55,910 nt of DNA, taken from a virus. Its lineage: Duplodnaviria > Caudoviricetes. Below, piece by piece: positions 1 through 55,910 of the stretch. A program made the translations under genes and the position numbers. Position 1 is the first letter of the stretch. Every line of letters begins with the position of its first letter. The notes beneath the pieces were generated by a model, which made no database searches, was not told the DNA's origin, and saw only the letters and a list, made by a program, of their open reading frames with translations. The DNA lies in IMG/VR virus record IMGVR_UViG_3300049789_000029, positions 1 through 55,910 of that record, one strand, 5' to 3'.

Positions 1-127
1 CGTCACCGTTGGCACCGGCCAGAACCCACTGGAAGGTGAACACGCCAGTCGTTCCCTGCACACCGAAGTTTCGGTTGGCAACGTTCTTCTGTTTTGACCA
101 GAGGAGCGTGCGCTTGCGCAAGAAGTT
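1..127. repeat. Terminal direct repeat (copy 1), identical to 55784-55910; circular assembly overlap
   Basis: Exact 127-nt identity between the two ends; it falls inside a coding gene, and 127 is a typical assembler k-mer length. Confidence 0.97.
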
Positions 128-568
128 ACTGGAGATGGCGGAGGTTGCCGGACGCAGAATCTCATTGATGACCTGATCAATGTGCTGTTCGGCGTGGGTG
201 ATGTGCATGTCTTGGTCGTAACAGATGAGGGGAGTTCCCCACGTCTGTTGTTCGGCGTAGTAGGTGAGACGATCCGCACCCCAGCCGATTTGATTCTCGG
301 TAGGATCACACGGATTGCCAGTACAGCCGGGACCGTTGGCCGTGACGCGATTCCACGTCTTGGTGGTGTTGGGCCACACAGAGCGGAAACGGTCTTGGGT
401 GATTTCAACGGGAGTCCCCATCGGAGTTGTTCCGGTGGAAACGTTGCCAAGCCATCCATCGGTGGGACGGATGTCTTCCATGATCAGTTCGTCAAACTTG
501 GGCGTCTGATCAACGAAGAATTGTCCAAAATCGCAAGAGCGGACGATTTGTCCTGTGGGACATGACAT
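128..568 (-). CDS. Major capsid protein, N-terminal 147 aa (continues across the join into 55910..54876)
   Basis: ATG at 568 reads MSCPTGQIVRSCDFGQFFVDQTPKFDELIMEDIRP..., open and in frame with the 54876..55904 ORF; lies directly downstream of the scaffold gene. Confidence 0.75.
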
Positions 569-4701: not shown

Positions 4702-7020
4702 TCACTCCTCCATGTTGGATGCGGATGCGGATGCCCGGGCTTTGGCGATGTCAATTCCAGCTAGAGCGGTTTCGGTTGCCACCTGCAAGCGTGAACGTTC
4801 GGCCTCTTGTTGCTGTTGTTGCTCGAACTGCACCTTCCGCTGGGCAGTCTTGGCCGCGTGGCTCTTGTTGCTCTGATCGATCTTTTGCTGGCCTCTCATC
4901 TTCTCCAGTTCCAGCTTGGCCATGTCTTCAGGTTTGATGCCGTTTCCGTTCTGTTGCTGCTGTGCCTTCATCGCTTCGGCCAGCCGTTGAGTAAACGCCT
5001 TGATGAAATTGTTGAGCTTGCCGAGTTGGTCTCCCAGTTGACGCACGAGTTGTTTCTGACTCTGGTCCGGTTCCATCGCGGTCAACACCTGTTGGACATG
5101 CTGGCCCATCATGTTCAAGCCTTTCAGTTTCTCCGGTGAAACCATGCCGCCGTTCTTCTGGGCTTCTCCGATGACCATGGCCATGTCTGCCAGCAGCGCT
5201 TGAGCGTATTCTCCAAGGTTGATTCCGTCCTTCATCGCGACGGGCAATCCTTGCATCAGTGAACCCGCTGCAAGCTGTGCATCGTGGATGGAGTTGGACA
5301 CCTGTGGTTGCTCCGGCACCAGTGCTTCGGCCTTTGCCGGATCGTCTGTGATGGCTGTGGTGACATCGCGAAGGATCATTCTCTGTGCAGATGGATCGTA
5401 GAGCGGGCGGAAGTTCATCAACTGCTCTGCGACGGCCATTTCCAGAGTCTTGTTGCCAGCGCCCATGACGCGCTCCGGATGGACTTCCCATGCTTCGGGA
5501 ACGAGCAGTTTTGCTGAGACTCCCTTCTTCATGCACGCGGCTCGGAACTCGCGCACGTCCGGGTCTTTGGAGTTGGGGCGCATGAATCGCCGTTTGATTT
5601 CGGCATACTCGAAATACTGATACTGAGTCGCCTGCATGACGGCGGCAGAGAGGAGCGCCGTGCTCGCGTTGACTTCCGCCATCACTTGAAAGCGAGTCTT
5701 CTCAACGCGGTCCCGGGAGAAGTTGGCGTTCTGCGTACTGGAAGAAGCGTTCTCTGTGATCAAATTCTTGTTTTCACCAAGACCCAGTTCCACCAACTGA
5801 GAGTTCAGTTGAAACCGTTCGGCAGCCGGGACGATGGTGACTCCTTCTTCAATGAAGCCTTTGTTCGCCAGTTCCACCTTCAGAGCGTGCTGAACATCGT
5901 CGGCGCTCTTCACCCGGAAATACATCATCATCTGCTCGAACACGGCTTCGTTGAATTTACAACGAAGCCGGTTCTGGAGGTGGCAGACGGCGTACTGCAA
6001 AAAGCCAAGTGACCTGACGGAGTGGTAACGGAAAGGAGCCACGGCGGACAAATCCGCAAACTGGAACGAGAAGATATTTTGCAGACTATCCGCAAACCGA
6101 TGGTTGCCGGACGTATAGAGAAAATCGGCTTTCTTGATCTTGTCCAAGTCGCCACGGTCTGAACGGCGGGGCATGGAATATCCGTTGGCTTGAACGCCCG
6201 CGTTACCCCATGCGTCAAGGATGATTCTTCGAATCCATTTGCTCTCCTTGCCGCTGTCGTCATAGGCGTAGATGTCGAAGCAATCGATTGTCGGAAGTTG
6301 ATCACTGGCGTAGAACCCTCCATCGCTCTTCACTCGTTCCGCCGTCTTTTCCGGAGACCACACTTCCGGCCAGTTCGTCCCCATCAGTTGAGTCCCCTGC
6401 TTGTCAATGTAATCGATAACACTGTTTACGAGCTTCATGTTCCAGCCCGGGTCACGGTTCCTTGCATCGGTAAGCTTTCGAAGTTCGTATGCCGTGAACG
6501 AACGATAAGCAACGATGAACGGAAGATTGTCGAATCCAAGCAGTGTGTTTGCCGGAACCAGAGCGTCTTCAACGCCGATGCACTTGGGACACCATCTCTC
6601 CTGATCCTGCCACACTGCCGGGGAGATGCCGTGGAGAACCAGCAGGCCGAACTTTGAACGCATCGTTTCAAAGTAGTTCAGCGAGCGCTTCATGATCCTG
6701 TTCATCTCCGTGGTCACAATCGTGTTGAAAGCGTCCCGTTTATGAACTGGAGCGGCATCTGAAGTGAGAGTGAAATACTTCCCGGGCTTGAGAAAGTTTT
6801 GAGCAAACTGAGCGCGTGCATCGTGGAGGAGCCGTGTCCCCTCAAGGAAGTTCACGTTCACGTCAATCGCGTTGGTCTTTACCTCGTCCTCTGTGTAAGG
6901 TGGAAGTCCGTTGTAAAGATCGTTGAGGAGAGAGCGATTCAAGCCACGCGGGTAATCCGCCAGCTTCAGGTCATAGCAAATCGAATCGCACAACCGTGCA
7001 TCGTTCCAGTCGTAACTCAT
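4702..7020 (-). CDS. Portal protein (772 aa; likely start MSYDWNDARL at 7020, not 7638)
   Basis: Size, helical Gln-rich C-terminal barrel, position; ATG overlaps the TGA of the upstream gene (ATGA). Confidence 0.75.
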   Translation of the reverse strand: MSYDWNDARLCDSICYDLKLADYPRGLNRSLLNDLYNGLPPYTEDEVKTNAIDVNVNFLEGTRLLHDARAQFAQNFLKPGKYFTLTSDAAPVHKRDAFNTIVTTEMNRIMKRSLNYFETMRSKFGLLVLHGISPAVWQDQERWCPKCIGVEDALVPANTLLGFDNLPFIVAYRSFTAYELRKLTDARNRDPGWNMKLVNSVIDYIDKQGTQLMGTNWPEVWSPEKTAERVKSDGGFYASDQLPTIDCFDIYAYDDSGKESKWIRRIILDAWGNAGVQANGYSMPRRSDRGDLDKIKKADFLYTSGNHRFADSLQNIFSFQFADLSAVAPFRYHSVRSLGFLQYAVCHLQNRLRCKFNEAVFEQMMMYFRVKSADDVQHALKVELANKGFIEEGVTIVPAAERFQLNSQLVELGLGENKNLITENASSSTQNANFSRDRVEKTRFQVMAEVNASTALLSAAVMQATQYQYFEYAEIKRRFMRPNSKDPDVREFRAACMKKGVSAKLLVPEAWEVHPERVMGAGNKTLEMAVAEQLMNFRPLYDPSAQRMILRDVTTAITDDPAKAEALVPEQPQVSNSIHDAQLAAGSLMQGLPVAMKDGINLGEYAQALLADMAMVIGEAQKNGGMVSPEKLKGLNMMGQHVQQVLTAMEPDQSQKQLVRQLGDQLGKLNNFIKAFTQRLAEAMKAQQQQNGNGIKPEDMAKLELEKMRGQQKIDQSNKSHAAKTAQRKVQFEQQQQQEAERSRLQVATETALAGIDIAKARASASASNMEE

Positions 7021-8228
7021 ATCACTTCCAGTTTGGGAACGAAGAAAATGAACTTCCCTCCACGCTTCCGATATTCCTCCTGAGACTTGAGAACCGATTC
7101 TCGAAAGTTCCAGCAAAAGCACACAGCGTAATCCGGCTGCTGGATGAGCAACTCGTCCTCCGACACTACTGGGATGTCTGTGCCCGGACAAAGCCTGCCT
7201 TGCTTCAACTCCGTCGTGTCCGTGACGAATCGAAGTTCCTTCCGGGTGAAGACACAGGCATTGATGGCGACTGTGCTCTTGGCCGATGCGCCAAATCCCA
7301 CCACGGTCTTTCCCTCTTGGATCAACTTCTCCACGTACTGCCGAAGCTGTAAAATCTGAAACTCCGATTCGGCAGCGAACAGCTTCCACTCCTGTTGGTT
7401 CACGGTCTCCGTCTGAAGAAGCTCGTCCACGCTGATGTCCCGGATGCTGCTGTGATCGTTTCTTCGGAGCATCAACATCACTGACCCTCCGTGAATCGGA
7501 TACTTGATCACTCGATGAAGGTGGAATGCGGTGTCTGACAACATCGTGTTCATTGCCTTGACCGTCATGTAAGACAGGTGCTCGTGGTAGATCGTATCCC
7601 ACTCGTGCTTTTCCAGCATGTCCGGACAGTAGGGACACTCAATGCACACTAGAGTGTTCTGGTGAGCGATGGAATCAATCAGGGCGATGAATGAATGCCA
7701 GTTGTCAATGTGAGCAAAGACGTGGCGAGCGATTACCGTGTCAACGTGCCCAAGCAATTCCTTCGCGGAGCGTGCCGAATCGGAATCGAAAAGACTCGTG
7801 ATCGTCCGAACTGAACGCTTAGACGCCGCCGTCGCGAGGTTCTCAGCCGGGTCAATCCCGATGCACTTGTTGAACCCGTTTGTGTAGAGGAATTCCAGAA
7901 GTGAACCGTCGTTGCTGCCGATTTCAAGGACGTTTCCATGCCTGTTTTCTTCAACGATGTCTTTCGTGATTGCTGCAAAATGTCTGCGCATCGTCTCCGT
8001 TGGCGATGTCACGTAGCTGTAGTAATCGTAGAGAATGGATGGATTGACGACAACGGAAAGCTGGGCCAGCGAACAGTCTTTGCACAGGAGAACTTTCAGT
8101 GGAGCGTAACCGGAACGCTCTTCCGCTGGCTTGCGGAAGTCGTTTGCCAGTGGTTGCACTCCAAGGTCAAAGACAGGAGTGAGATTCGCGCTCCGACAGG
8201 CACGGCATTTAGAGTGGTCCGTGAACAT
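7017..8228 (-). CDS. NDP-hexose C-methyltransferase (TylCIII/EryBIII/TcaB9-type)
   Basis: Zn motif CRAC...CKDCSLAQL, DLGVQPLAN, SAM motif LEIGSNDG, DTIYHEH, IHGGS, GFGASAKS, KQGRLCPGTDIPV. Confidence 0.92.
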   Translation of the reverse strand: MFTDHSKCRACRSANLTPVFDLGVQPLANDFRKPAEERSGYAPLKVLLCKDCSLAQLSVVVNPSILYDYYSYVTSPTETMRRHFAAITKDIVEENRHGNVLEIGSNDGSLLEFLYTNGFNKCIGIDPAENLATAASKRSVRTITSLFDSDSARSAKELLGHVDTVIARHVFAHIDNWHSFIALIDSIAHQNTLVCIECPYCPDMLEKHEWDTIYHEHLSYMTVKAMNTMLSDTAFHLHRVIKYPIHGGSVMLMLRRNDHSSIRDISVDELLQTETVNQQEWKLFAAESEFQILQLRQYVEKLIQEGKTVVGFGASAKSTVAINACVFTRKELRFVTDTTELKQGRLCPGTDIPVVSEDELLIQQPDYAVCFCWNFRESVLKSQEEYRKRGGKFIFFVPKLEVI

Positions 8229-8260
8229 CTACCGGCTTTTACGCCGGGAGTTACGGTGCG

Positions 8261-9130
8261 TCAATGCTTTTCCGGAACCCAGTGCTTGAGCGATTCGAAA
8301 ATTGCGTCCTCAACTGGAGGCATGTTGAACCCGGTTGCGAGTAATTTCTCGACGCTCAACTTGCAATTACTCTTCGGAGTGCGGGCGACTGTGTTTTGAA
8401 ATTCTTCGTCGTTCCAGAACTGGAATTCCTTTCCCGGTTTCAGGACATGAGTGATCAGTTCGCACACACGACGAGAAGAAATCTGATCCTTGTTGGTGGC
8501 ATTGTAGATGCCGAACGGCGCTCTCACTCTCCAAAGGTGAAGGCACGCCTTCACGAAGTCCGAACGTCGGCTGAGTGAGTTGGTTGCCCGGACAACTTTC
8601 TCGTAGCGCATGAGCTTGGAAATGTAATTCCGGTGACAATCGAACTCATCGAACGGGAGACGAATCCGACAGATGTAGCTCATCGGATTCTTAGAGACGA
8701 TTTGCTCTGCCAGTTCTTTGCTGCCGACATACACCCCGCAATGGGTGTTGAACGAAAGCTGTGGAGTATCCTTCTCAGTCCACCCTTTTCCGCCGTTGTC
8801 TCCGAAATAAAGGCACCCCGTTGAGACGTGGAGTAGCTTGGTTCCTGTCTCCTCGCAAGCGTTGGACAGCACCGAAGGGAACACCAAATTGGTGCGTAGC
8901 GTGTCAGACTTCCTGTCCTCGCACGCATCAGCAAGACCTTTGTGGATGAACGCTGCGCAGTTGATCACCAACTCCGGTTTTAACGAACTCAGAATCCAGA
9001 AGAGATTCTTGAATTGGGTGTAATCAACGATGTCGCGAGATAGCTCCATCACTCCCAACCCTTGAGCTTTGAGTTCGCGGGAGAACGCTTGTGCGATGTA
9101 GCCCTTGGCTCCGAGTAAGATCATTCTCAT
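8261..9130 (-). CDS. NDP-4-keto-sugar reductase/epimerase (RmlD or NRS/ER-like extended SDR)
   Basis: GAKGYIA Rossmann motif, INCAA, HVSTGCLY, catalytic YVGSK, CRIRLPF. Confidence 0.85.
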   Translation of the reverse strand: MRMILLGAKGYIAQAFSRELKAQGLGVMELSRDIVDYTQFKNLFWILSSLKPELVINCAAFIHKGLADACEDRKSDTLRTNLVFPSVLSNACEETGTKLLHVSTGCLYFGDNGGKGWTEKDTPQLSFNTHCGVYVGSKELAEQIVSKNPMSYICRIRLPFDEFDCHRNYISKLMRYEKVVRATNSLSRRSDFVKACLHLWRVRAPFGIYNATNKDQISSRRVCELITHVLKPGKEFQFWNDEEFQNTVARTPKSNCKLSVEKLLATGFNMPPVEDAIFESLKHWVPEKH

Positions 9131-9132
9131 GT

Positions 9133-9861
9133 TTATCCTCCGTCTGAGAGCTTTGACAGTCTCTCTCGTTCTTCATCGCTGGCGTGTTTGAAAATTTCAG
9201 TGTGCCGGTCAAGGACAAGGATGTTGCTCTGATCACCACGGCGGAAGATGTTGTCCGGCTTGCGCCAGTCCGGGAACGAATACTCTCCATCCCAAGTCAC
9301 GAGCATGGACGGCTTGCCTTCGTTCACATACTGTCGGGAGATGTTCCATTCCCGTGATTCGAACGTCCATGTCCCGCCTCTGTCCCGCACTTGCTGTGGA
9401 AAGTCACGGAGCACTTTCGGATCAATGCCGTAGAAGTTCGTCCGGAGATGCGGCATTCCCTCATTCGAACTCATAGTTGCGTACATCCCATCTCCGTGTT
9501 TCTCCCGCACTTCAACCAACCGCTTGAGCCAGCCTTCTTTCCAGAAGAATGAACGCGCTGAACTGAAGAGTGCAAAATCAGAATCCAGAAATTGTGCCGC
9601 CCATTGATGGACTCCGGTGCACCATCGGTCTCCTTTGTAAAACAGGAACGTGCAATCCAGTCCTTCGTAAAGCTTTGGTGTTGGCGGCAATCCATTTGTG
9701 AACACGATGACGAGTTCATGTTCCGCTCCTGCCGGGAACTTCTTGTAGGTTTCGATGAACCTCCAAGCGTTGTCCTCGTATGTGCCGGACTGAAGGTCTA
9801 AGGCCGTATCATATCCCTCGTTCGGAGTGACGACGTGAAGGTAAACAACGGAAGTTTTCAT
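9133..9861 (-). CDS. Putative glycosyltransferase-like protein
   Basis: RFIETYKKFPAGAEHELVIV and PHLRTNF resemble proteins of polysaccharide loci; neighbouring genes support this. Confidence 0.45.
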   Translation of the reverse strand: MKTSVVYLHVVTPNEGYDTALDLQSGTYEDNAWRFIETYKKFPAGAEHELVIVFTNGLPPTPKLYEGLDCTFLFYKGDRWCTGVHQWAAQFLDSDFALFSSARSFFWKEGWLKRLVEVREKHGDGMYATMSSNEGMPHLRTNFYGIDPKVLRDFPQQVRDRGGTWTFESREWNISRQYVNEGKPSMLVTWDGEYSFPDWRKPDNIFRRGDQSNILVLDRHTEIFKHASDEERERLSKLSDGG

Positions 9862-10055
9862 CGGGGTTTGAATCGGCCCTGAATGACGAGCGCTTTTGCG
9901 AACACACCCCCACGTTTAATCACAACCAAGAAGTGTGTCCCGGCAAGCACTTTGGCCAGCGCTTCGACTGTTGATTGATCAGTGACATCAACGCCAAGCT
10001 TGCACGCTCGCTTGGTTAGCTTTGTTGCCACTGCGAGGCTGGGTTGCTTAATCAA
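9858..10055 (-). CDS. Small hypothetical protein
   Basis: TTG start overlapping the upstream stop; ATGA-coupled downstream. Confidence 0.4.
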   Translation of the reverse strand: MIKQPSLAVATKLTKRACKLGVDVTDQSTVEALAKVLAGTHFLVVIKRGGVFAKALVIQGRFKPR

Positions 10056-10410
10056 AGCGCACCTCCACGACACGACAGTCCCAGAGTTTGCGTTTGCCGC
10101 GCTCTCCGCGTTTGGCCCATCCGTGCACGACAATCCGATTTCCGGACGCGAGCCAGATTCCAGCTTCAGCGATTCCTTTGATTTTCGTGATGTGGTCTGC
10201 GACGTGTGCCCCGCTAGTTGTCTGGACGAGCGTGGCTCCGATTTGTCCAACCTTGGTTGCAAGGATGTCTCCGAACCCCCACACATCGCACCGGATGATC
10301 TTGCCCTTGTAACCAAGTGGCGTGGTGGGAATCCATTTTTCAACAATGTGAACAGTGAATCCCTGATCACGAAGAAACTTCAGACTTCTCTGAGTGGGAG
10401 TGATTGGCAT
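10048..10410 (-). CDS. PD-(D/E)xK nuclease, probable Holliday junction resolvase
   Basis: TPTQRSLKFLRDQGFTV..VE, DVWGFGDILA, LVQTTS pattern. Confidence 0.7.
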   Translation of the reverse strand: MPITPTQRSLKFLRDQGFTVHIVEKWIPTTPLGYKGKIIRCDVWGFGDILATKVGQIGATLVQTTSGAHVADHITKIKGIAEAGIWLASGNRIVVHGWAKRGERGKRKLWDCRVVEVRFD

Positions 10411-10419
10411 TGTGGTGGT

Positions 10420-10968
10420 TCATGGTTTTACGTAGCTCCAAAGGCGCGGTACGGGAATGTCGAATCGCGGCAGACTCGCAATCACGCCAAGCGCTACATC
10501 GTTGTGAGGGACATCGAAATCGTGTCCGAAGATGACACCTCCGGAACACAGCAACGGGAGAAAGCACCGAATGTCACGCTTTACGTCTTCTGTCGCGTGC
10601 CCGTCATCAACCCATACCCGTTGAATCCTTCCGCGCATGTGCTGAAGCATGTCAGCAGCCCGGGCTGAATCGCCTTTGATGAGTTCGCACCTTCCCTGTG
10701 CGATTTCTTTTCCGAGGTATCCTCGTGCGGTGTGTTCAATGCCCGGGACATCAAACGTATCAACACACCACAGGTGCAACGCGGGATTGGCGTCCAGCAT
10801 CACCTTGGCGCTTCGGCCAAGATAAGTTCCCAACTCAACGGCAACGGTGCACTGCGATGCCATCTCTGCGCAATACGCAAGACAGTGATCTTCTGTCCAC
10901 GTCCAGATGTGATCGGACTGCCGGATGACAGTCCGCCATTTTTCGGTGAGTTGTTCTGCGAGATACAT
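10420..10968 (-). CDS. Class I SAM methyltransferase (Methyltransf_24-like)
   Basis: VELGTYLGRS, CVDTF, IKGDS, VDDGH, GGVIFGHD. Confidence 0.88.
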   Translation of the reverse strand: MYLAEQLTEKWRTVIRQSDHIWTWTEDHCLAYCAEMASQCTVAVELGTYLGRSAKVMLDANPALHLWCVDTFDVPGIEHTARGYLGKEIAQGRCELIKGDSARAADMLQHMRGRIQRVWVDDGHATEDVKRDIRCFLPLLCSGGVIFGHDFDVPHNDVALGVIASLPRFDIPVPRLWSYVKP

Positions 10969-10971
10969 GCT

Positions 10972-11439
10972 TCAATCCAGTTGTTGAATTCGGAAGAAGT
11001 GATGGTCCGGAGACGGAATGCCGTTCGTTCGAAACGCGAAGTTCGTTGTCGCCAGAAATGTGTTGAGCGGAATCCACTCTCCGGAGTTCAGGTCGTTCGC
11101 ACGCTCCCACCTGTAGTGATGTCCATTCGTGAGATTGTTCGCCTTCGTCACGATGTAGAACGGCACTACGAAGTTCGTGTCCGGAGCGAGCAAGTTGTAT
11201 TGCTCCACGTTCAGCCAAATCTGGTTTGTGTCCAAAGGAGGAATGGTGTTCGTCATGCAGTTGGTGCACGGCGGACATGGGTCCGGATCACACGGAGTAG
11301 GCGGGCCTTCGGACTTCCGAATCGCTTGAAATACCGGAGCCGGTTTCTTCGTCACGCATCCCGCCACCAGAACGGCGATGATGGCCACGAATGCCATAAT
11401 CGAAATGATGATGACCCATGTTTGTGTTTTTGTTTTCAT
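10972..11439 (-). CDS. Lipoprotein with Pro/Cys linker and Verrucomicrobia-type C-terminal domain
   Basis: Signal peptide with lipobox VAGC; PCPPCTNC; YRWERANDLNSGEW...FFRI. Confidence 0.7.
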   Translation of the reverse strand: MKTKTQTWVIIISIMAFVAIIAVLVAGCVTKKPAPVFQAIRKSEGPPTPCDPDPCPPCTNCMTNTIPPLDTNQIWLNVEQYNLLAPDTNFVVPFYIVTKANNLTNGHHYRWERANDLNSGEWIPLNTFLATTNFAFRTNGIPSPDHHFFRIQQLD

Positions 11440-12197
11440 ACGCTATAACCTCTCTCTCTGAGCCAATCGTGAATGATCGTCGGATGTGTTCCGTTGTATT
11501 CCAACAGCCGGTCTTGCCAGTCGTTCAGGCCCGGGCTTTCCATCCAGTTGCCTTGAAAGTTCTCAGCGTCCACGAGCCGTTGATCGTAAGAGTTGACCCA
11601 AATCTTGTGAACCACTCTGGCCTTTTTGAAATACGCATCGCGCTTTCGAAGGCACCCGTAGTGCATGATCTTCACTCCGCTGTTCTCTGCGATGCGTTCG
11701 ATAGGCCCGGAGTTCGGGTCCGGATAATCGCTGGGCATCCACATGTTTGCCGCGCCAACCCGTATCACGCGATGGCCAAGGCACTCACCGTGAGGAACGA
11801 GGTGTCTGGAATCCTTGAAAAAGTTGTAGCGCTCACACATGAGCGTTCGATGTTCACGAGCCGCCCGTAGAACTTCCTCGTAAGAATCCTCGTGAAGGAT
11901 TTCGTCGGCATCCAACTGAACGTGCCACTCCGTCTTCAGATGTTGGCGAGCGTAATTCAGATACTCCGGCCACCAGAGATTGGTGTGCACCGGATCAGTC
12001 CACGGAAAGTTGAGAGTGTTGATCTTCGGCTCTCGTGCGGCCCATTCGTCAATAGCGGCTCGTGTTCCATCGTCGGAGTCGCAATCGCAGATGACAACTT
12101 CGTCGCAGATGGGAAGCAGACTCTTCACCGCTTCAATCCAACAATAATCGAGTCTAAATCCGTTTCGAACACAGACGTTGCCGCCAAGTGTGCTCAT
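11436..12197 (-). CDS. Glycosyltransferase family 2
   Basis: CDEVVICDCDSDDGT, QLDADE, IMHYG; start MSTLGG is ATGA-coupled to the HNH gene. Confidence 0.85.
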   Translation of the reverse strand: MSTLGGNVCVRNGFRLDYCWIEAVKSLLPICDEVVICDCDSDDGTRAAIDEWAAREPKINTLNFPWTDPVHTNLWWPEYLNYARQHLKTEWHVQLDADEILHEDSYEEVLRAAREHRTLMCERYNFFKDSRHLVPHGECLGHRVIRVGAANMWMPSDYPDPNSGPIERIAENSGVKIMHYGCLRKRDAYFKKARVVHKIWVNSYDQRLVDAENFQGNWMESPGLNDWQDRLLEYNGTHPTIIHDWLRERGYSV

Positions 12198-12637
12198 AGG
12201 AACGTTGTGAGTGCTCTTTTCACTGGCCATCCATATAGACCCAGACGATTCACAAGGGTAGTCTTTTTAATTCCCGTTCTGTCGGCCCATTGAGAGATCG
12301 TCAATGTGATGCCCTTAAACGTAATTCTGACATTATCTCTTCTGTTGTTTTCCTGTTCTTTCCATGTCGCCCATTTGCAGTTCGCAGGACAATATCCCCT
12401 CTCGTTGTTTACCCGCTCTATCGTCAATCCCTTTCTCCACGACGGAAACATATCCGTGGCAAAGTTCTTGAACTCTTGCCATCGCTTGCAAAGCCTTATT
12501 CCCCGGCCTCCATAATTTTTGAACATTGGATGTCGCTGGTTTGAACACCGCTTTCTGATACTCCTCCAGCAGTCGTATATCGGGTGTGATTTACCGTTTC
12601 TGCAAAACCCGTGCTTTGTGTTCTTGTGCGGTTTCAT
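12194..12637 (-). CDS. HNH-type homing endonuclease
   Basis: RC..N..YGGRGI..C.RW..F.NF..DM, TIERVNNERGY.PANCKWAT..EQ.NNRR. Confidence 0.85.
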   Translation of the reverse strand: MKPHKNTKHGFCRNGKSHPIYDCWRSIRKRCSNQRHPMFKNYGGRGIRLCKRWQEFKNFATDMFPSWRKGLTIERVNNERGYCPANCKWATWKEQENNRRDNVRITFKGITLTISQWADRTGIKKTTLVNRLGLYGWPVKRALTTFL

Positions 12638-14316
12638 TCGTAGTCAAATGACCCCGGGATTCTGTGCAGGTTATGGTCAAGATATTTGCCCCAAATAGCA
12701 TTGAATGTTGCGTTGGCCTGCCCCACCAACTCTTGAATGTTGCCTAGCTTTGCGGTGCTTTGATGTTCAAGATGGACTCCGGTAGCATGTGGAGTATATC
12801 GTATCCGCCATCCCGCTCTTCGCATCGCGAGACAGAACGCATCATCTTCCGCATAAATTTTAAAGCGCTCGTCAAAGCCATCTATTCCGTAAAATGCTTC
12901 TCTGCGAACAAGGACACTAGCGCCGTTGATATTTTCCATGTCCACGGCCTGTTTGATAGTCGGATCACGGTGCCGGTAATCGATGTGACCCCAGCCTCTT
13001 GCTCCCGGCTCTCTCATTTTTCCTGCATGGTAGATAGTCCCATCCGGATACCGAAGTAGATGTCCCACCATTCCGACTTCCGAATCCATTTCGAACTTCA
13101 TCCGTGACACGGCTTCCGGGTCCAAGAACACGTCATCGTTCAACAGCAGCAGAAACTTCCCGTTGGAGTGGCGAGCGCCGAAGTTCACGTTTCGACCGTA
13201 ACCGATTTGATTCACGAACTTCTGCACGTATTTGATCTTGGGATGTTGCAGCGCTCCCGGTGGAATGCGTGAGTAACCTTCCCCGGTGACAATCACTTCC
13301 TGCACTTGGGGGAGCACGCACTCCAAAGTCCGGTTGAGCGTGTTCACGTCCGGCTGATATATCGGAATGATGGCCGACACGTCGTCACCGAACCGATACC
13401 GCAACCGTGCGTTGGCCCAATTCGCTACAAGCTCCGGGTCAATCTGCTGGCAAGGCGGCATGTGCTCCGACTTGGGGCAGAGGTTCTGCTGGCAGTTCAA
13501 GCAGTCCAGCTTCGGGGCTACTGAAATGAAATCGTTCTGATCATTCAGGTGAAGGTCCGGGCTGGAGGACTGGGAGATTGTCACCATCGGAATTCCCAAG
13601 GCAGCAGCGACGTGCATCGGACCTGTGTCCACGCTGATCATCAAATCCGCCACGGAGATGTATTCGATCACGTTGTCAAAGTGGCGGCAGTTTAGATCAA
13701 CGAAGTTCTTGGGAGCGGGATGACGTCCAACCCAAAACTTTGTTCCCTTCGTTTTCTCTGCAACGATTTCCCAAATCCAATCCGGAACATTGCGCACGTT
13801 GTAAGAGTCGGAGCGCGGGCACACGAATACCCACGGCCTCTCATACTGTGAAAGCTTTTGGCGGACGGCGTGCTTCACATTCTGGTTCACCCGAATCTTG
13901 GGTTTGCAGTTGAGTGCATCACCGATGAGGATTCCACGAGCACGCAACTGGAGTTGGGCCTTCTCAAAGAACATCGTGTGAAAATGTTTCTGCGTTCTCT
14001 GAGGATCGTTCTCGTAAGCACCGTCAAGATCGATGTGGCAGAACCCACCCGGCTCCGTGACATCGAACAGGTTGGGATGCCGTTTCAACAGGCAATGACA
14101 ATGCGGGTGAGATTGCATCGTCACTTCGAAGTTCATTTGAATCAGCCTGTCCGCAACAACCGTGGCGCACAAAGCATCTCCAAGAGCAGCAGTGCGACGA
14201 AGGATGATCGGTGTGGCGTTGGCTCGCTCTTGGTCTCGCTTGGCGAGAAAGGCGGCGTTACCTCCGCCGCCCGGGTCTGGTTTCAGCATAAAGCAGGAAT
14301 CCTTGCTCACTTCCAC
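12634..14316 (-). CDS. Two-domain glycosyltransferase: GT9 (heptosyltransferase-like) + GT2
   Basis: RTAALGDAL and ISVDTGPMHVAAALGIP (GT9); AIIPIY, LLLNDD, GASVLVRRE...GFDERF..YAED (GT2). Confidence 0.9.
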   Translation of the reverse strand: MEVSKDSCFMLKPDPGGGGNAAFLAKRDQERANATPIILRRTAALGDALCATVVADRLIQMNFEVTMQSHPHCHCLLKRHPNLFDVTEPGGFCHIDLDGAYENDPQRTQKHFHTMFFEKAQLQLRARGILIGDALNCKPKIRVNQNVKHAVRQKLSQYERPWVFVCPRSDSYNVRNVPDWIWEIVAEKTKGTKFWVGRHPAPKNFVDLNCRHFDNVIEYISVADLMISVDTGPMHVAAALGIPMVTISQSSSPDLHLNDQNDFISVAPKLDCLNCQQNLCPKSEHMPPCQQIDPELVANWANARLRYRFGDDVSAIIPIYQPDVNTLNRTLECVLPQVQEVIVTGEGYSRIPPGALQHPKIKYVQKFVNQIGYGRNVNFGARHSNGKFLLLLNDDVFLDPEAVSRMKFEMDSEVGMVGHLLRYPDGTIYHAGKMREPGARGWGHIDYRHRDPTIKQAVDMENINGASVLVRREAFYGIDGFDERFKIYAEDDAFCLAMRRAGWRIRYTPHATGVHLEHQSTAKLGNIQELVGQANATFNAIWGKYLDHNLHRIPGSFDYE

Positions 14317-14984
14317 TCCTTCACTAACCAGCAGTAATCGGGAAGAGTAGCCCTGATTTCATCAGTTACTTTGGGCTGAATTTTCTCCATCGGCAAATGC
14401 ACCTTCAATCGTAATGGACACGAACAGAGTTCGCACACTCCAAGCTTTGCATCATGCGAAGTCTCAAGCTTCATGTCGTTCTTCAACTGAATCGTTTTCC
14501 GAATCGCTTCGCTGGCTTGCCGCGTGAAGAAAGACGACAGGTCTCCCTCCATGTTGAACCGACAGCCAGCGCAAACTCCAGCGCGTGCGTTGCTCTGTTC
14601 CGGGGGCACTGCCTCCGCACCGCTTGCAATCCATTCCACGAGGGTTTCACCGCCCGCCACAACACGTTGACTTTTTTGGAGCAACGTCTGTTGCGGGCGG
14701 ATTGAAAGTGGGGGGCTTGGGTCTCCTGATCCTGTGATGTATTTCGTCCACCCCATTTGCTCGCAAATCTTGGCGTTGTAGGCGTCCAACTCTTCGCGCA
14801 CGTTGTCAACGTCTGTCGGCCAGCCGTGCTTCTCTTTCAAAAACGGATTGGCATTGCGATGAGAGATAATCGCCTGCACTATCGATTCGAAGCTGCTATA
14901 TCTTGGTGGTCGCCACCCTGTCTCGGGTTGATAATACGAGAGGCCATTTGGTATTTGCCGATTTCTGTCAATGAGTCGTGCCAT
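14307..14984 (-). CDS. Cys-rich hypothetical protein
   Basis: CAGC...CELCSC.L.LKVH...LPDYCW. Confidence 0.75.
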   Translation of the reverse strand: MARLIDRNRQIPNGLSYYQPETGWRPPRYSSFESIVQAIISHRNANPFLKEKHGWPTDVDNVREELDAYNAKICEQMGWTKYITGSGDPSPPLSIRPQQTLLQKSQRVVAGGETLVEWIASGAEAVPPEQSNARAGVCAGCRFNMEGDLSSFFTRQASEAIRKTIQLKNDMKLETSHDAKLGVCELCSCPLRLKVHLPMEKIQPKVTDEIRATLPDYCWLVKEWK

Positions 14985-15468
14985 AAGCTGGAGTGTTGCA
15001 TCTTTCCCCCCTTCTCACCATGCATACGTAAGATACTGAGAGGCCAAACCGTCTTGCCAGTTCTGTTGCTGACAGTGGGGAGTGCTTAATCATTTTGATT
15101 TTGTTTCGGTTGAGAATCTTGGATGTTCTGGTACGCCCTTTTTGTGATGCATCTCGCATATTGTCCTTCTGCGTCCCCAGAAAAAGGTGAGCAGGATTCA
15201 CGCATTTAGGATTATCACATGTGTGGCAGAGAAATTCTTTGTTTGTGATCTTTCTTCCACATAGTTTCCAACAGAGGCGAGATACCTGAATGCATTTCCT
15301 CTTATTGGTAATCGCTGCATATCCATTTCTCAATGCTGCCATCCAGTTCCAGCAGCCCGTTTGCGAGTCTTTCTGAACTCGTCTAATAATCTCCTTCAAA
15401 GTCCACCGCTTCGGAAGGATTCTTCCACTCGCGTCCCTTTGTACTTCCCACCATTTAGAGCGGCCCAT
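14968..15468 (-). CDS. HNH endonuclease with C-terminal HTH
   Basis: GCWNW, CHTCDNPKCVNPAHLFLGTQKDNMRD; AT-richer than its flanks. Confidence 0.88.
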   Translation of the reverse strand: MGRSKWWEVQRDASGRILPKRWTLKEIIRRVQKDSQTGCWNWMAALRNGYAAITNKRKCIQVSRLCWKLCGRKITNKEFLCHTCDNPKCVNPAHLFLGTQKDNMRDASQKGRTRTSKILNRNKIKMIKHSPLSATELARRFGLSVSYVCMVRRGERCNTPAYGTTH

Positions 15469-15553
15469 ATTGATGCGGGTTATAAACTCATGTCTCTGTG
15501 GAGTCAAACAAAATAGTTGACAGATGTTAGCTGGTTATGCGAATTGTCTGAAC

Positions 15554-16062: not shown

Positions 16063-16358
16063 AAGTTCCAAAACTTCATTGGACCCTGTGGGCGTGGTTC
16101 GTCTTCTCACTGGGATTCGGAATCACAATCAAACTCGCCGCCGACGTGGACAAGAACACCGGATGGCGAATGTTCATCTGGGCTGTTGTCATCTCGTGCA
16201 CATTCGCGCTGGCTGCCTTTTTCCTATCCCTCCGCAACTACCTCAAACTCAAATCCTATGAAAACCAAATGGATCATCACACTGGTTATCGTTTCGGCAC
16301 TGGTAGGAGTGTCGCAAGTCAAACCCAGCAGCGCACAACCCGCAAGCCAAGACCCTAA
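16059..16358 (+). CDS. Two-TM membrane protein
   Basis: Two hydrophobic helices; coupled start. Confidence 0.6.
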   Translation: MKVPKLHWTLWAWFVFSLGFGITIKLAADVDKNTGWRMFIWAVVISCTFALAAFFLSLRNYLKLKSYENQMDHHTGYRFGTGRSVASQTQQRTTRKPRP

Positions 16359-16923
16359 TCGTCCGAAGCTTGTTGACTGCACGGCTGAGTTCATTATCGG
16401 CGGACTCGTCCTTGTGGTTGGAGTCGTCATCTACGTTGGCCTCAAAAAGTTTTGTGAAAAACATCTGCCGCCTGATCAACCACCCGCTCCGCCTCCGCCA
16501 CCGTGCACAAACTGCAACCCGGCTCATCCATCGTGGCCGTGCACCAACTGTCCTCCACCCGCTAAGTCACTCGTAAAAAGCTTCGCTCCTTTTCCGCTTC
16601 TCCAGTTGGATTCCGGCAGCGCCGTGGATTACTCCGACATCACCAGCTACGGCTGGTTCGATGCGTTCTCCAATCGCTTCCAGATTTACTTCACGACGAA
16701 GATTGAGGAGAGCACAAATCTGATCGACTGGACTTCACGCTTCTCTCTGGAAGGTTACGTGAGCTTCGGTGATCTGGCTCTGAGATGGCCTTCCAACGCT
16801 GTGACCGTAGTTCGCTCGAACGGCGTGGCTGTCGGCACGAACTGGTCTTGGCTTCAGACAGAGCCGGTGTCCATCGACTCGCAACCGGCAGCAAGGAAGT
16901 TCTATCGGCTGGCACATGAGTAA
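16258..16923 (+). CDS. Exported/membrane protein with PCTNC repeats and Verrucomicrobia-type C-terminal domain
   Basis: Signal peptide, TM helix, two PCTNC, IEESTNLIDW...RKFYRL. Confidence 0.7.
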   Translation: MKTKWIITLVIVSALVGVSQVKPSSAQPASQDPNRPKLVDCTAEFIIGGLVLVVGVVIYVGLKKFCEKHLPPDQPPAPPPPPCTNCNPAHPSWPCTNCPPPAKSLVKSFAPFPLLQLDSGSAVDYSDITSYGWFDAFSNRFQIYFTTKIEESTNLIDWTSRFSLEGYVSFGDLALRWPSNAVTVVRSNGVAVGTNWSWLQTEPVSIDSQPAARKFYRLAHE

Positions 16924-36364: not shown

Positions 36365-36841
36365 ATGCCGTGGACAGTAAAACGCAAAACGATTCCGGCA
36401 TTTGACAGGTTCATTCGAAAACTACGACGATGTGATAACGGATGCTGGAAGTGGTGCGGACACGTCAACAAGCAACTGGGTTATGGCTTCTTCATGGTGA
36501 AGAGGCCCGCTCCAGTATTGGCGCATCGGTTTTCCTTTGAAGCGTTTCGCTATCCCATTCCCACAGGAATGACTATCGATCATCTCTGTCGCAACCGATG
36601 GTGTGTAAATCCATTTCATCTGCAAGTGGTGACGATCAGAGAAAACATTCTGAGGGGTACAGGTCAAAGCGCACGCAATGCAGTCAAGACACATTGTAAA
36701 TTCGGTCACGAATTCACCAAGCAGAACACATATCTTACAGGAACAGGCGGCAGGCAGTGCCGAATTTGCAGGAGGCTTCGATTTATTCTGTGGTCATGTA
36801 AAACGAAAGGAAATCATTCCAAAGCTTCTGCCGCTGGGTGA
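36365..36841 (+). CDS. HNH endonuclease
   Basis: GCWKW, AHRFSF, IDHLCRNRWCVNPFHL, KTHCKFGH, RQCRIC. Confidence 0.9.
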   Translation: MPWTVKRKTIPAFDRFIRKLRRCDNGCWKWCGHVNKQLGYGFFMVKRPAPVLAHRFSFEAFRYPIPTGMTIDHLCRNRWCVNPFHLQVVTIRENILRGTGQSARNAVKTHCKFGHEFTKQNTYLTGTGGRQCRICRRLRFILWSCKTKGNHSKASAAG

Positions 36842-54875: not shown

Positions 54876-55910
54876 TCACAGAATTGGACCGTCTTGGCTG
54901 CCAGTCGGAACACCAGTTCCGTAAACCCCATCAGGTGCCGGACAAGTCGGCAGGCTGGAGCTATAGCTCTGAGGCGGATAGCCCGGATTAACGGAGCAGG
55001 TTCCGATTTCGGGAATACAGAACTGTTCACGTTTGTGGAAGATGGCTTCCAAGAACTCGTAGTGCAGCGGGCGCACGTAGTATTTGAACCACGCGATGAA
55101 CTGACCTTTGTTCTCCCACTTGTTGGAGATGACGTTGCCTTGAGCATCCGCGCCCAAGTCGTGCATCGCGAAGCGCCACTTGCCGCCGAAGTCACGGTGT
55201 CCGAACGGCATTTCGGGACTTAGCGGACGAGCGTCCGGCACCAGCAGTTCAAGACCCTTCTTGTGAGAGATGAAGCTCACAGCGAACTGCGCTTTGTCGA
55301 AGTCCGTGTTTTCGTCCGAACCGATACCGGCAGCGCCTCCGGCACCCGTCGTGGTCGTGTTCACGTACGGCAGGACGATCTGGTAGCGGTAACGGTTGCC
55401 GTTGCCGCCGTGCGCGTTCGCGCCAAGATCGGTGACGTAGTTGAATCGCAATCCCATCTCATCCACGCGGACAAGATAGTTGCCGATTTGACCGGAGAAG
55501 CCGTAGCGCCAATACGCATTGGCCGCGCTCCATTCGGTGAAGCGCCAGTTTCCGGAAACGTCCGGGCCTTCACCGCCGCCCGTTCCGAGTTGGCCACCCA
55601 GCTTGTCCAAGAACCAGCAGGTGTCCATGTCGGTGACGAGTTCGATGTATGGTGCAGTCTCCTTGAAGGGATTCTTGCCGCCATAACCACGGCGCATGAG
55701 CGGGCTGAACCGGCTCTGCAACATCTGGGGGACCAGATGGAAGACGTTCGTCGGAGCGACGGAACAATCAAAATAGATTTCCTCGTCACCGTTGGCACCG
55801 GCCAGAACCCACTGGAAGGTGAACACGCCAGTCGTTCCCTGCACACCGAAGTTTCGGTTGGCAACGTTCTTCTGTTTTGACCAGAGGAGCGTGCGCTTGC
55901 GCAAGAAGTT
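54876..55910 (-). CDS. Major capsid protein, C-terminal 344 aa (491 aa in total)
   Basis: Size, portal-scaffold-capsid gene order and strongly biased codon usage; no motif-level proof of fold. Confidence 0.75.
   Translation of the reverse strand, partial: NFLRKRTLLWSKQKNVANRNFGVQGTTGVFTFQWVLAGANGDEEIYFDCSVAPTNVFHLVPQMLQSRFSPLMRRGYGGKNPFKETAPYIELVTDMDTCWFLDKLGGQLGTGGGEGPDVSGNWRFTEWSAANAYWRYGFSGQIGNYLVRVDEMGLRFNYVTDLGANAHGGNGNRYRYQIVLPYVNTTTTGAGGAAGIGSDENTDFDKAQFAVSFISHKKGLELLVPDARPLSPEMPFGHRDFGGKWRFAMHDLGADAQGNVISNKWENKGQFIAWFKYYVRPLHYEFLEAIFHKREQFCIPEIGTCSVNPGYPPQSYSSSLPTCPAPDGVYGTGVPTGSQDGPIL
55784..55910. repeat. Terminal direct repeat (copy 2)
   Basis: Identical to 1-127. Confidence 0.97.

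Follow-up and report, generated by a model that had tools for sequence, protein, structure and literature searches.

What does a soil phage do with a set of sugar-pathway enzymes encoded directly upstream of its portal gene? The question is raised by IMG/VR virus record IMGVR_UViG_3300049789_000029 (Caudoviricetes), which we analysed over its whole length of 55,910 nucleotides (hereafter the window). The record is the full IMG/VR virus entry of 55,910 bases, carries an exact terminal repeat of 127 bp and is 100% complete by CheckV, corresponding to a complete genome of ~55.8 kb; its source is a lytic, podovirus-like, uncultured soil phage. Six enzymes at 7017-14316 are all encoded on the minus strand, co-oriented with the portal and capsid genes, and form a cassette that takes up ~13% of the genome and is located before the portal. 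We tentatively read this mosaic cassette as one that makes a methyl-branched sugar and a methylated glycan on a virion protein, a reading to which we give somewhat less than an even chance. The enzymology is well supported by sequence and the link to the virion is plausible; the order of the steps, the nucleotide carrier, the sugar product, the timing and the acceptor are what we infer. The six enzymes, in order of coordinates (NDP, nucleoside diphosphate; SDR, short-chain dehydrogenase/reductase; SAM, S-adenosylmethionine), are:

7017..8228, minus strand: NDP-hexose 3-C-methyltransferase family enzyme, 403 aa, with a stop codon that overlaps the start of the portal gene
8261..9130, minus strand: SDR of NDP-4-keto-6-deoxyhexose 3,5-epimerase/4-reductase type, 289 aa; Pfam RmlD_sub_bind, 1.2e-24
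9133..9861, minus strand: GT-A-fold glycosyltransferase-like protein, 242 aa; fold match, no Pfam hit
10420..10968, minus strand: Methyltransf_24, predicted class I SAM methyltransferase, 182 aa; Pfam, 1.1e-15
11436..12230, minus strand: GT2 glycosyltransferase, 264 aa; Glycos_transf_2, 1.3e-08, and Glyco_tranf_2_4, 5.6e-05
12634..14316, minus strand: GT9-like and GT2 fusion, 560 aa; Pfam GT9 and GT2

A sequence-only reading of this DNA had proposed these six co-oriented enzymes as a sugar module. The roster stands, five members being recognized by Pfam and the 242-aa glycosyltransferase-like protein by its fold. Three other genes break into the module: an HNH endonuclease, a lipoprotein-like open reading frame (ORF) and a 120-aa ORF. 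Neighbouring genes across the block are spaced by -37 to +49 nt, and six sugar-pathway enzymes packed this tightly are far above chance expectation. The cassette shares its orientation with the portal gene, which it immediately precedes, and with the capsid gene, which follows ~6.5 kb downstream of it. The ATGA given earlier at 7017-7020, in which the C-methyltransferase stop and the portal start overlap, is exact in the sequence: on the minus strand the portal ATG occupies 7020-7018 and the C-methyltransferase TGA 7019-7017 (context ...GTG ATA TGA versus ATG AGT TAC...). No hydrophobic stretch reaching KD19 1.6 was found in any of the glycosyltransferases (GTs), the methyltransferase, the SDR or the C-methyltransferase, and from this absence the cassette enzymes are predicted to be soluble.

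The C-methyltransferase is the most distinctive member. Its Pfam matches all exceed the cut-offs (Methyltransf_13, PF08421, residues 8-67, 4.5e-17; Methyltransf_23, PF13489, 79-235, 1.8e-17; Methyltransf_14, PF08484, 244-398, 2.3e-37), in a layout of N-terminal zinc-binding domain, class I SAM domain and C-terminal Methyltransf_14. The PDB search returned MtmC, which is the 3-C-methyltransferase for D-mycarose (4rv9, 1e-73 over residues 7-400), and TcaB9 (3ndi, 7.6e-56), with which the 'Sugar 3-C-methyl transferase' entries 5t64 and 5t6b are grouped. The likeness to MtmC and TcaB9 extends over the full length and takes in the three domains, the four zinc cysteines and the Y-H-E-H-L-S-Y stretch. 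C8, C11, C49 and C52 align with cysteines of MtmC, in which 'YHEHLSY' is identical; the same four cysteines and H215-E216-H217-x-x-Y220 are invariant in 7/7 phage homologues of the enzyme. We take the zinc cysteines and the Y-H-E-H stretch to be catalytic in TcaB9. Unlike the C-methyltransferases of antibiotic pathways, the enzyme is phage-encoded and lies beside glycosyltransferases, not polyketide genes. By homology it should methylate C-3 of an NDP-4-keto-6-deoxyhexose, with methylation at C-5 also possible. Neither a 2,3-dehydratase nor an aminotransferase was found in the phage, and its substrate is therefore probably a 2-hydroxy 4-keto-6-deoxyhexose.

The family is broader than this clade. 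It is found on at least 562 IMG/VR contigs; among the best 80 of these loci, 6 belong to the portal clade studied here, and the neighbours include a Gmd-like gene in 16, a fucose-synthase-like gene in 24 and both in 11. Seven GenBank phage records contain a match. A literature search, with most subscription journals outside its coverage, returned no description of such a C-methyltransferase or of a branched deoxysugar in phages.

The neighbouring SDR had been described as an RmlD-like reductase. It does carry the RmlD_sub_bind domain, but it is nearer to the bifunctional NRS/ER-L780 type: its best solved relatives are the '3,5-epimerase/4-reductase' 4qqr (Arabidopsis NRS/ER, 4.7e-26) and the 'UDP-L-rhamnose synthase' 7jid (mimivirus L780, 2.8e-16), whereas RmlD entries are weaker (best 8g22, 4.1e-10). 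Both the Cys/Lys pair, the acid and base of epimerization, and the Tyr/Lys pair of NRS/ER and L780 are kept, C106 aligning with a Cys and K172 with a Lys of both enzymes, and Y134 and K138 forming the Tyr-x3-Lys pair; RmlD 8g22 has S-T-D-Y at the site where the phage SDR has T-G-C. The available part of a Chem Rev article describes L780 as a bifunctional 3,5-epimerase/4-reductase that accepts UDP- and dTDP-sugars, and states that mutagenesis has confirmed the key roles of Cys108 and Lys175 (PMC9614988). Because it is of the NRS/ER-L780 type and not a plain RmlD, the phage SDR probably epimerizes as well as reduces. On the methylated branch only C-5 epimerization and reduction would be expected, since a methylated C-3 cannot be epimerized. 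The earlier logic, in which a C-methyltransferase is paired with a ketoreductase, holds. The supply of the sugar lies outside the cassette. The complete genome has no match to the 4,6-dehydratase family PF16363 or to the sugar-1-phosphate nucleotidyltransferase family PF00483 (controls 14/14 for each), so the 4-keto sugar must come from a rhamnose- or fucose-type pathway of the host.

Four transferase domains are spread over three proteins. The fusion consists of an N-terminal, GT-B-type GT9-like half, a four-Cys linker and a C-terminal, GT-A-type GT2 half (Glyco_transf_9 at residues 213-280, 4.3e-10, 39.8 bits with a cut-off of 22; Glycos_transf_2 from 314 to either 445 or 521, 4.9e-11). Invariant in 7/7 homologues of the fusion are D230-T231-G232-P233-x-H235, C272/C275/C280/C289, N393-D394-D395 and D491. 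Searched against the PDB as a seven-sequence profile, the GT2 half matched chondroitin synthase (2z87, 9e-13) and the GT9 half matched WaaF (1psw, 2.2e-05 over 45 residues), 3tov (0.021) and WaaC (0.11). The GT9 match covers only profile positions 174-241 of 247, and on sequence similarity we label this half GT9-like and do not file it as a GT9 member. General Pfam scans of the window proteins turned up no heptose-pathway gene. The fusion family has 475 metagenomic homologues at E <= 1e-5, with PF00535 and PF01075 both present in 118 of the 120 listed; several homologues lie on contigs of 54-65 kb. A comparison with TibC/AAH-type protein heptosyltransferases was prompted by the four-Cys linker, that family presumably having a Cys 'iron finger', and it failed: no TibC-type chain was among the 20 PDB matches that the seven-sequence profile gave at E <= 1.

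The 242-aa protein has an ESM Atlas model (predicted template-modelling score (pTM) 0.90), which matches two clusters auto-named GT2 with template-modelling (TM) scores of 0.88 and 0.87. Its TM scores are 0.61-0.64 against clusters in which the aligned part is PF00535 or PF13641. A 26-sequence profile of its family gave no PDB sequence match. The modelled fold points to a putative glycosyltransferase of GT-A fold, for which no DxD motif is confirmed. The 182-aa Methyltransf_24 enzyme, which also has a weak PHROG match (phrog_2675, 'DNA methyltransferase', 1e-09), is one that we infer to be a glycan O-methyltransferase.

The virion genes next to which the cassette stands are the following:

4702..7020, minus strand: portal protein, 772 aa, assigned from AlphaFold and Foldseek
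54876..55910, minus strand: major capsid protein, C-terminal 344 residues; gene start at 568, reading on across the record ends
2..568, minus strand: major capsid protein, N-terminal 189 residues; same gene as 54876..55910

Neither the portal nor the capsid protein had a Pfam, PHROG or PDB-sequence match, and both were approached through their folds. The portal was modelled from an alignment with 30 of its 1532 metagenomic homologues (predicted local distance difference test (pLDDT) 63.9, pTM 0.34). Foldseek returned 32 PDB matches at E <= 1e-3, and all those listed are phage portals or portal-containing neck/tail assemblies (SU10, 4.8e-06; N4, T7, GP4, Pan3, Carin1, VP1 and PaP3), with TM-scores of only 0.2-0.3. 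The model thus identifies the 772-aa gene as the portal, in agreement with the earlier assignment. None of the 120 homologues listed, out of 1532 at E <= 1e-3, has a Pfam domain or a meaningful name. The capsid gene crosses the record ends, so gene callers run on the linear record will give two fragments; these overlap in sequence across the 127-bp terminal repeat, and both match a single 488-aa ORF in L002, one of the related loci described below. The two window pieces were not joined; instead the intact homologue from a second locus, L028, was modelled with 38 relatives (pLDDT 70.3, pTM 0.67). The model has the HK97 fold and 142 PDB matches at E <= 1e-3, all those listed being HK97-fold proteins with the N4 capsid (9e99, 7.7e-10) as the best, and the identity of the capsid gene is verified by this modelled fold of the L028 relative.

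To place the cassette in its clade we compared 81 related loci from two IMG/VR scans with the portal. Homologues that cover at least half of the query were found as follows:

portal: 81/81 loci
capsid, C-terminal part: 60/81 loci
GT-A 242-aa protein: 28/81 loci, with up to 3 copies per locus
C-methyltransferase: 10/81 loci
GT9-GT2 fusion: 7/81 loci
SDR: 5/81 loci
Methyltransf_24: 4/81 loci
264-aa GT2: 3/81 loci

Many loci repeat one gene order, from terminase to 225-aa gene to variable stretch to portal. The 225-aa gene that marks the upstream border in the window is:

14307..14984, minus strand: Cys-rich 225-aa gene, upstream border of the slot, outside the sugar module; conserved in the clade

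It has a homologue in 63/81 loci (61/81 covering at least half of the query), often directly after the large terminase, and six Cys residues are invariant across 29 sequences; it gave no Pfam, Atlas-named or PDB match. Between this gene and the portal the slot measures 1310-8642 bp in the 61 loci that show both borders and contains 351 ORFs of at least 80 aa, which fall into 122 clusters. Most of the 122 cluster representatives have no Pfam match, and the majority of the Pfam-recognized slot genes belong to sugar-related and methyl-transfer families: GT2 types, GT9, Methyltransf_23, Methyltransf_24 (two clusters), FkbM, DUF5672 and TylF, and further GDP-mannose dehydratase (GDP_Man_Dehyd), Epimerase, cytidylyltransferase-like, GT_PLOD and radical SAM. 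The radical-SAM genes form three distinct clusters, one with a SPASM domain, among the glycosyltransferase and methyltransferase genes of the slot (for example, L058:4817-5587, L011:6913-7998 and L036:7704-8618). Among relatives of at least 50 kb, 11/45 have a PF00535 match.

Individual loci show how the cassette is put together. L002, with a portal 53% identical to that of the window, has the same enzyme set before the portal, and in L028 the SDR, C-methyltransferase and portal genes are adjacent as in the window. L032 has the fusion, GT2, Methyltransf_24, GT-A and portal genes without the branched-sugar pair. A Gmd-like SDR gene lies beside the C-methyltransferase within the slot in L054 and L055, a Gmd-like gene lies on the opposite strand and upstream of the slot in L082, and a 48%-identical Gmd homologue stands immediately before the portal in L012. 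Synteny, which had been put forward as a check, is found in particular relatives, against the background of a slot that is hypervariable across the 81 loci. As for the module being 'wired into the virion operon', its genes do share the orientation of the portal and capsid genes and are closely packed with them, but the phrase claims too much of a functional link, the site being a general accessory hot spot in relatives. The sugar module represents one of the forms taken by a hypervariable accessory island and is no fixed component of the head operon.

Three further genes interrupt the cassette in the window:

12194..12637, minus strand: HNH homing-type endonuclease, 147 aa, an insertion that separates two glycosyltransferase genes; phrog_3377, 2.5e-47
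10972..11439, minus strand: lipoprotein-like ORF, 155 aa, whose hydrophobic N-terminal stretch (KD19 3.07) has a lipobox-like L-V-A-G-C at its end
10048..10410, minus strand: 120-aa ORF, the real gene of its gap, function unassigned; tblastx 63% identity over 98 aa to L028:7297-7590

In L032 the glycosyltransferase genes that flank the HNH site adjoin, with no HNH gene between them. Homologues of the 147-aa endonuclease occur in 13/81 loci at varying positions, and those of a second HNH gene (14968-15507) in 15/81. HNH genes are frequent and variably placed around the slot (for example, in L013, L017, L021 and L053), and homing-endonuclease traffic could be a driver of cassette shuffling. The lipoprotein-like ORF has a homologue in 0/81 relatives and no Pfam or PHROG match, and is probably an unrelated accessory gene. 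It has in common with a 245-aa membrane ORF (16186-16923, plus strand) the Pro/Cys-rich motif 'PPCTNC'; the two may be paralogous envelope proteins, for instance for superinfection exclusion. In the remaining gap, GC content by codon position is gene-like in the 120-aa ORF and flat in an overlapping 170-aa frame (9858-10370), which has homologues in 0/81 loci and is probably spurious.

In the pathway that we propose, the C-methyltransferase would take an NDP-4-keto-6-deoxyhexose supplied by the host and methylate C-3 using SAM, and the SDR would then epimerize C-5 and reduce C-4 to give an NDP-3-C-methyl-6-deoxy-L-hexose; acting on the unmethylated intermediate, the SDR would give NDP-L-rhamnose. 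The four soluble transferase domains (GT9-like, GT2, GT2 and GT-A) would build a short glycan, which the Methyltransf_24 enzyme would O-methylate. The cassette would be read together with the portal and capsid genes, and the glycan would be attached in the cytoplasm to a virion protein, for which the capsid protein is the first candidate. A bolder version, which we consider doubtful, is that capsids throughout the clade bear an O- and C-methylated oligosaccharide that varies from strain to strain, the slot being the viral counterpart of a bacterial O-antigen locus and the glycan of this phage containing 3-C-methyl-6-deoxy-L-hexose.

Where on the capsid protein might such a glycan sit? A C-terminal tail extends past the last conserved Cys, and the matching residues 480-505 of L028 have pLDDT <50; we regard this tail as a candidate acceptor site. 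By raw counts, a tail of at least 20 aa is found in 21/22 loci with a GT-A gene versus 12/37 without. L046, L066, L067 and L074 were counted as lacking GT-A although their DNA upstream of the portal is missing, so that their GT-A absence is missing data. The association vanishes under phylogenetic control and so gives no support to the tail as acceptor: on a capsid-core tree with only 8 independent pairs, the tail changed with the GT-A gene in a mean of 1.9 pairs, in none did it change in the opposite sense, and it stayed the same in 6.1 (median p 0.5).

This result is one of several that weigh against a glycan on the virion. Nothing computed identifies the acceptor as virion or host envelope. 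In L054 and L082, the C-methyltransferase and the reductase (RED) are present and the capsid tail is one residue long, and in L027 the C-methyltransferase lies outside the slot altogether, on the opposite strand and upstream of the divergent block. The 122 slot representatives also include non-sugar genes, some for anti-defence and some for DNA functions (Acb3, C5 DNA methylase (2), DnaB, SSB, Cpn10 and HNH), and the position beside the portal may for this reason reflect a permissive insertion site. Promoter and terminator scans were at chance level (5 promoter-like sites versus 9.5 expected, 24 terminator-like sites versus 21), so co-transcription of the cassette with the portal is deduced from spacing alone. 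A look for RNA evidence on the timing listed no RNA run; the five runs listed are soil metagenomes that are probably DNA. Known 3-C-methyltransferases mostly use 2,6-dideoxy or 3-amino sugars, and no 2-deoxygenation enzyme was found in the phage. Finally, LPS (lipopolysaccharide) glycosyltransferases of Waa type are soluble too, so enzymes that lack membrane helices could still act on a lipid-linked acceptor.

That last point leads to the main rival, which we consider unlikely: the cassette would remodel a glycan of the host envelope (LPS core or O-antigen, capsule or S-layer glycoprotein) during infection. On the inner side of the membrane, its enzymes would use host acceptors that are lipid-linked or of the lipid A-core kind, and the gain could be a block to superinfection or progeny that do not adhere to cell debris. 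The only solved relatives of the GT9-like domain are indeed LPS heptosyltransferases (the WaaF, 3tov and WaaC matches above), enzymes of a type that needs no membrane helix; the nearest solved relative of the GT2 half is a polysaccharide synthase, and the lipoprotein-like ORF inside the module is of a kind typical of exclusion genes. An analogous cluster in phage DSL-LC02 belongs, in the part of its description available, to cyanophage sugar genes treated as host-metabolism genes (PMC10611076). The genome nevertheless yielded no initiating phosphoglycosyl transferase, flippase, polymerase or GtrA-type protein (GtrA PF04138, 0 matches; controls 13/14), the enzymes have no membrane helix, and the genes sit with the portal and capsid genes and not in the plus-strand replication block. 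Nor would a lysogen gain from seroconversion, because the phage has no tyrosine integrase (PF00589, 0 matches in the genome; serine recombinases were not searched).

A further alternative is that the transferases hypermodify phage DNA with a glycan (5hmC, 5hmU or 5-hydroxycytosine-like) to evade restriction. There are phage GT-A and GT-B enzymes, kin to those for LPS and teichoic acid, that glycosylate DNA, and their clusters may lie among structural genes, according to the accessible portion of one study (Pyle et al., bioRxiv 10.1101/2023.12.21.572611), and poly-arabinosylated 5-hydroxycytosine is described for RB69 and DLP3 in the part of another (PMC13326640) that was available. C5 DNA methylases account for 2/122 slot representatives in relatives, and the PHROG match of the Methyltransf_24 enzyme is to a family named DNA methyltransferase. 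But the known routes, as far as the same two sources describe them, need a thymidylate-synthase homologue, or a C5 methylase together with 5mYOX/TET, and PF00303, PF12851 and PF00145 each have 0 matches in the complete genome, which bears out the earlier statement that no base-modifying precursor enzyme was seen. Among relatives of at least 50 kb, PF00303 is absent in 45/45 (controls 10/14); PF12851 is found in 0/45, a weak blank given that no control was recovered. Approximately 65% of glycosyltransferase-containing contigs are without such a partner and are judged less likely to act on DNA in the portion of Pyle et al. (bioRxiv 10.1101/2023.12.21.572611) at hand. As a ThyA homologue, a TET/JBP enzyme and a C5 DNA methylase are all absent, DNA is disfavoured as the target, and we consider this alternative very improbable. 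Somewhat less so, although still improbable, is an acceptor of another kind, a non-structural protein of phage or host or a small molecule, with the slot being merely a tolerated insertion hot spot. The wide range of slot sizes and the mixed functions of the 122 clusters would suit such a hot spot, as would the shuffling of sub-cassettes among relatives and the frequency of HNH endonucleases. On the other hand, sugar-pathway and methyltransferase families dominate the Pfam-recognizable part of the slot, and four transferase domains would imply a defined oligosaccharide on a macromolecule and not a metabolite.

The reading that we favour, a glycan on a virion protein, has its closest parallel in mycobacteriophages. 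To our knowledge, phage-encoded virion glycosylation is known experimentally only from a few actinobacteriophages. In Che8, Rita and others, phage glycosyltransferases and methyltransferases are thought or shown to decorate capsid proteins, in the parts of the two reports available (PMC11256854, PMC12619734), and the C-termini of the capsid and tail-tube subunits are reported to carry the glycans (Freeman et al. 2023, Cell Host Microbe, cited in PMC12619734). The window phage resembles them in having glycosyltransferases and a methyltransferase without a DNA-modification partner, and its capsid protein likewise has a C-terminal tail, modelled with low confidence. It differs in being a podovirus-like soil phage where they are actinobacterial siphoviruses. 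The glycosyltransferase genes of Maravista are placed near the 3' end of the genome, not before the portal as here, in the accessible text of PMC11256854, and the available parts of the two reports mention no C-methyltransferase or epimerase/reductase for the mycobacteriophage system (PMC11256854, PMC12619734); the comparison with Che8 is one of descriptions.

The other parallels concern parts of the cassette. L780 belongs to the self-encoded glycosylation machinery of giant viruses, as the available part of PMC9614988 presents it, and the window is like that system in having a viral sugar-nucleotide enzyme alongside viral transferases and a methyltransferase; unlike the L780 system, it pairs the SDR with a C-methyltransferase and has no viral dehydratase (R141 equivalent). 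The T4-like cyanophage DSL-LC02 of Synechococcus (OR032571, L084) encodes at 92704-102407 Gmd, a homologue of the C-methyltransferase (27.7% identity over 100% of the window query), GDP-L-fucose synthase, seven glycosyltransferases and an FkbM methyltransferase, a run that predicts a GDP-linked branched sugar. The scheme is shared, from the 4-keto sugar through C-methylation and the epimerase/reductase to many transferases and a methyltransferase; in contrast to the window, DSL-LC02 has a 168-kb genome, its own dehydratase and a GDP-type reductase, and its cluster is not beside the portal. The part of the DSL-LC02 paper available mentions the dehydratase, the fucose synthase and the glycosyltransferases, not the C-methyltransferase (PMC10611076). 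Clusters for glycan hypermodification of phage DNA, in the portions of Pyle et al. 2023 and Lee et al. 2026 at hand, share with the cassette GT-A and GT-B enzymes of LPS or teichoic-acid ancestry that are sometimes near structural genes, but their defining precursor enzymes are absent from the window genome. The Gtr seroconversion modules of temperate phages are a last comparison, similar in being a phage-encoded change of a surface glycan and different in that no GtrA, membrane-bound GtrB/GtrC-like protein or tyrosine integrase is present here.

The rest of the genome is arranged in two gene blocks, resolved from AT skew and ORFs. A plus-strand block at ~15.5-36.8 kb encodes a primase/helicase, an AAA ATPase, a DUF2201 metallopeptidase/VWA protein and a PD-(D/E)XK exonuclease; many starts in it are preceded by an A-rich 'AAAGGACAG'-like stretch, not a classical Shine-Dalgarno sequence. 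The minus-strand block runs from 15507 down to 1 and then from 55910 down to 36783, continuing past position 1 because the record is circularly closed. No tRNA gene is present in the record (0). Other features are:

49891-51729, plus strand: large terminase; phrog_2, 9.9e-09
14968..15507, minus strand: second HNH endonuclease, 179 aa, which opens the minus-strand block; phrog_1872, 9.4e-24, and Pfam HNH_3, 7.8e-05
36783-43016, minus strand: 2077-aa ORF; no Pfam or PDB-sequence relative

Since the portal and capsid folds are nearest to those of N4 and SU10-type phages, the 2077-aa ORF could be a giant virion-packaged protein. No near relative was found among 50,697 GenBank phage records, by DNA of the 12-kb region or by portal protein. 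The only clade member in 185,579 species genomes is L083, a 13-kb contig binned in a Gemmataceae metagenome-assembled genome, with the layout HNH, 225-aa gene, GT-A and portal as in the window. This one binned contig is a weak lead to Planctomycetota as possible hosts of the clade.

A phage glycosylation cassette is, as a kind, already known. What is new is that a branched-sugar pair, an NRS/ER-type enzyme and a GT9-like/GT2 fusion come together in a pre-portal hypervariable slot, in a large uncultured soil clade. Branched-chain deoxysugars are a class of sugar found in antibiotics and in a few surface glycans of bacteria. Where the cassette stands in the window, relatives have other sugar genes, which suggests that a glycan is under diversifying selection. 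Were the virion the acceptor, the clade would provide a testable system for the role of a glycan shield outside medical settings and a source of enzymes for rare NDP-sugars, and if the capsid is indeed what is glycosylated, and with this sugar, no earlier case of a branched-chain sugar on a virus particle would have been shown.

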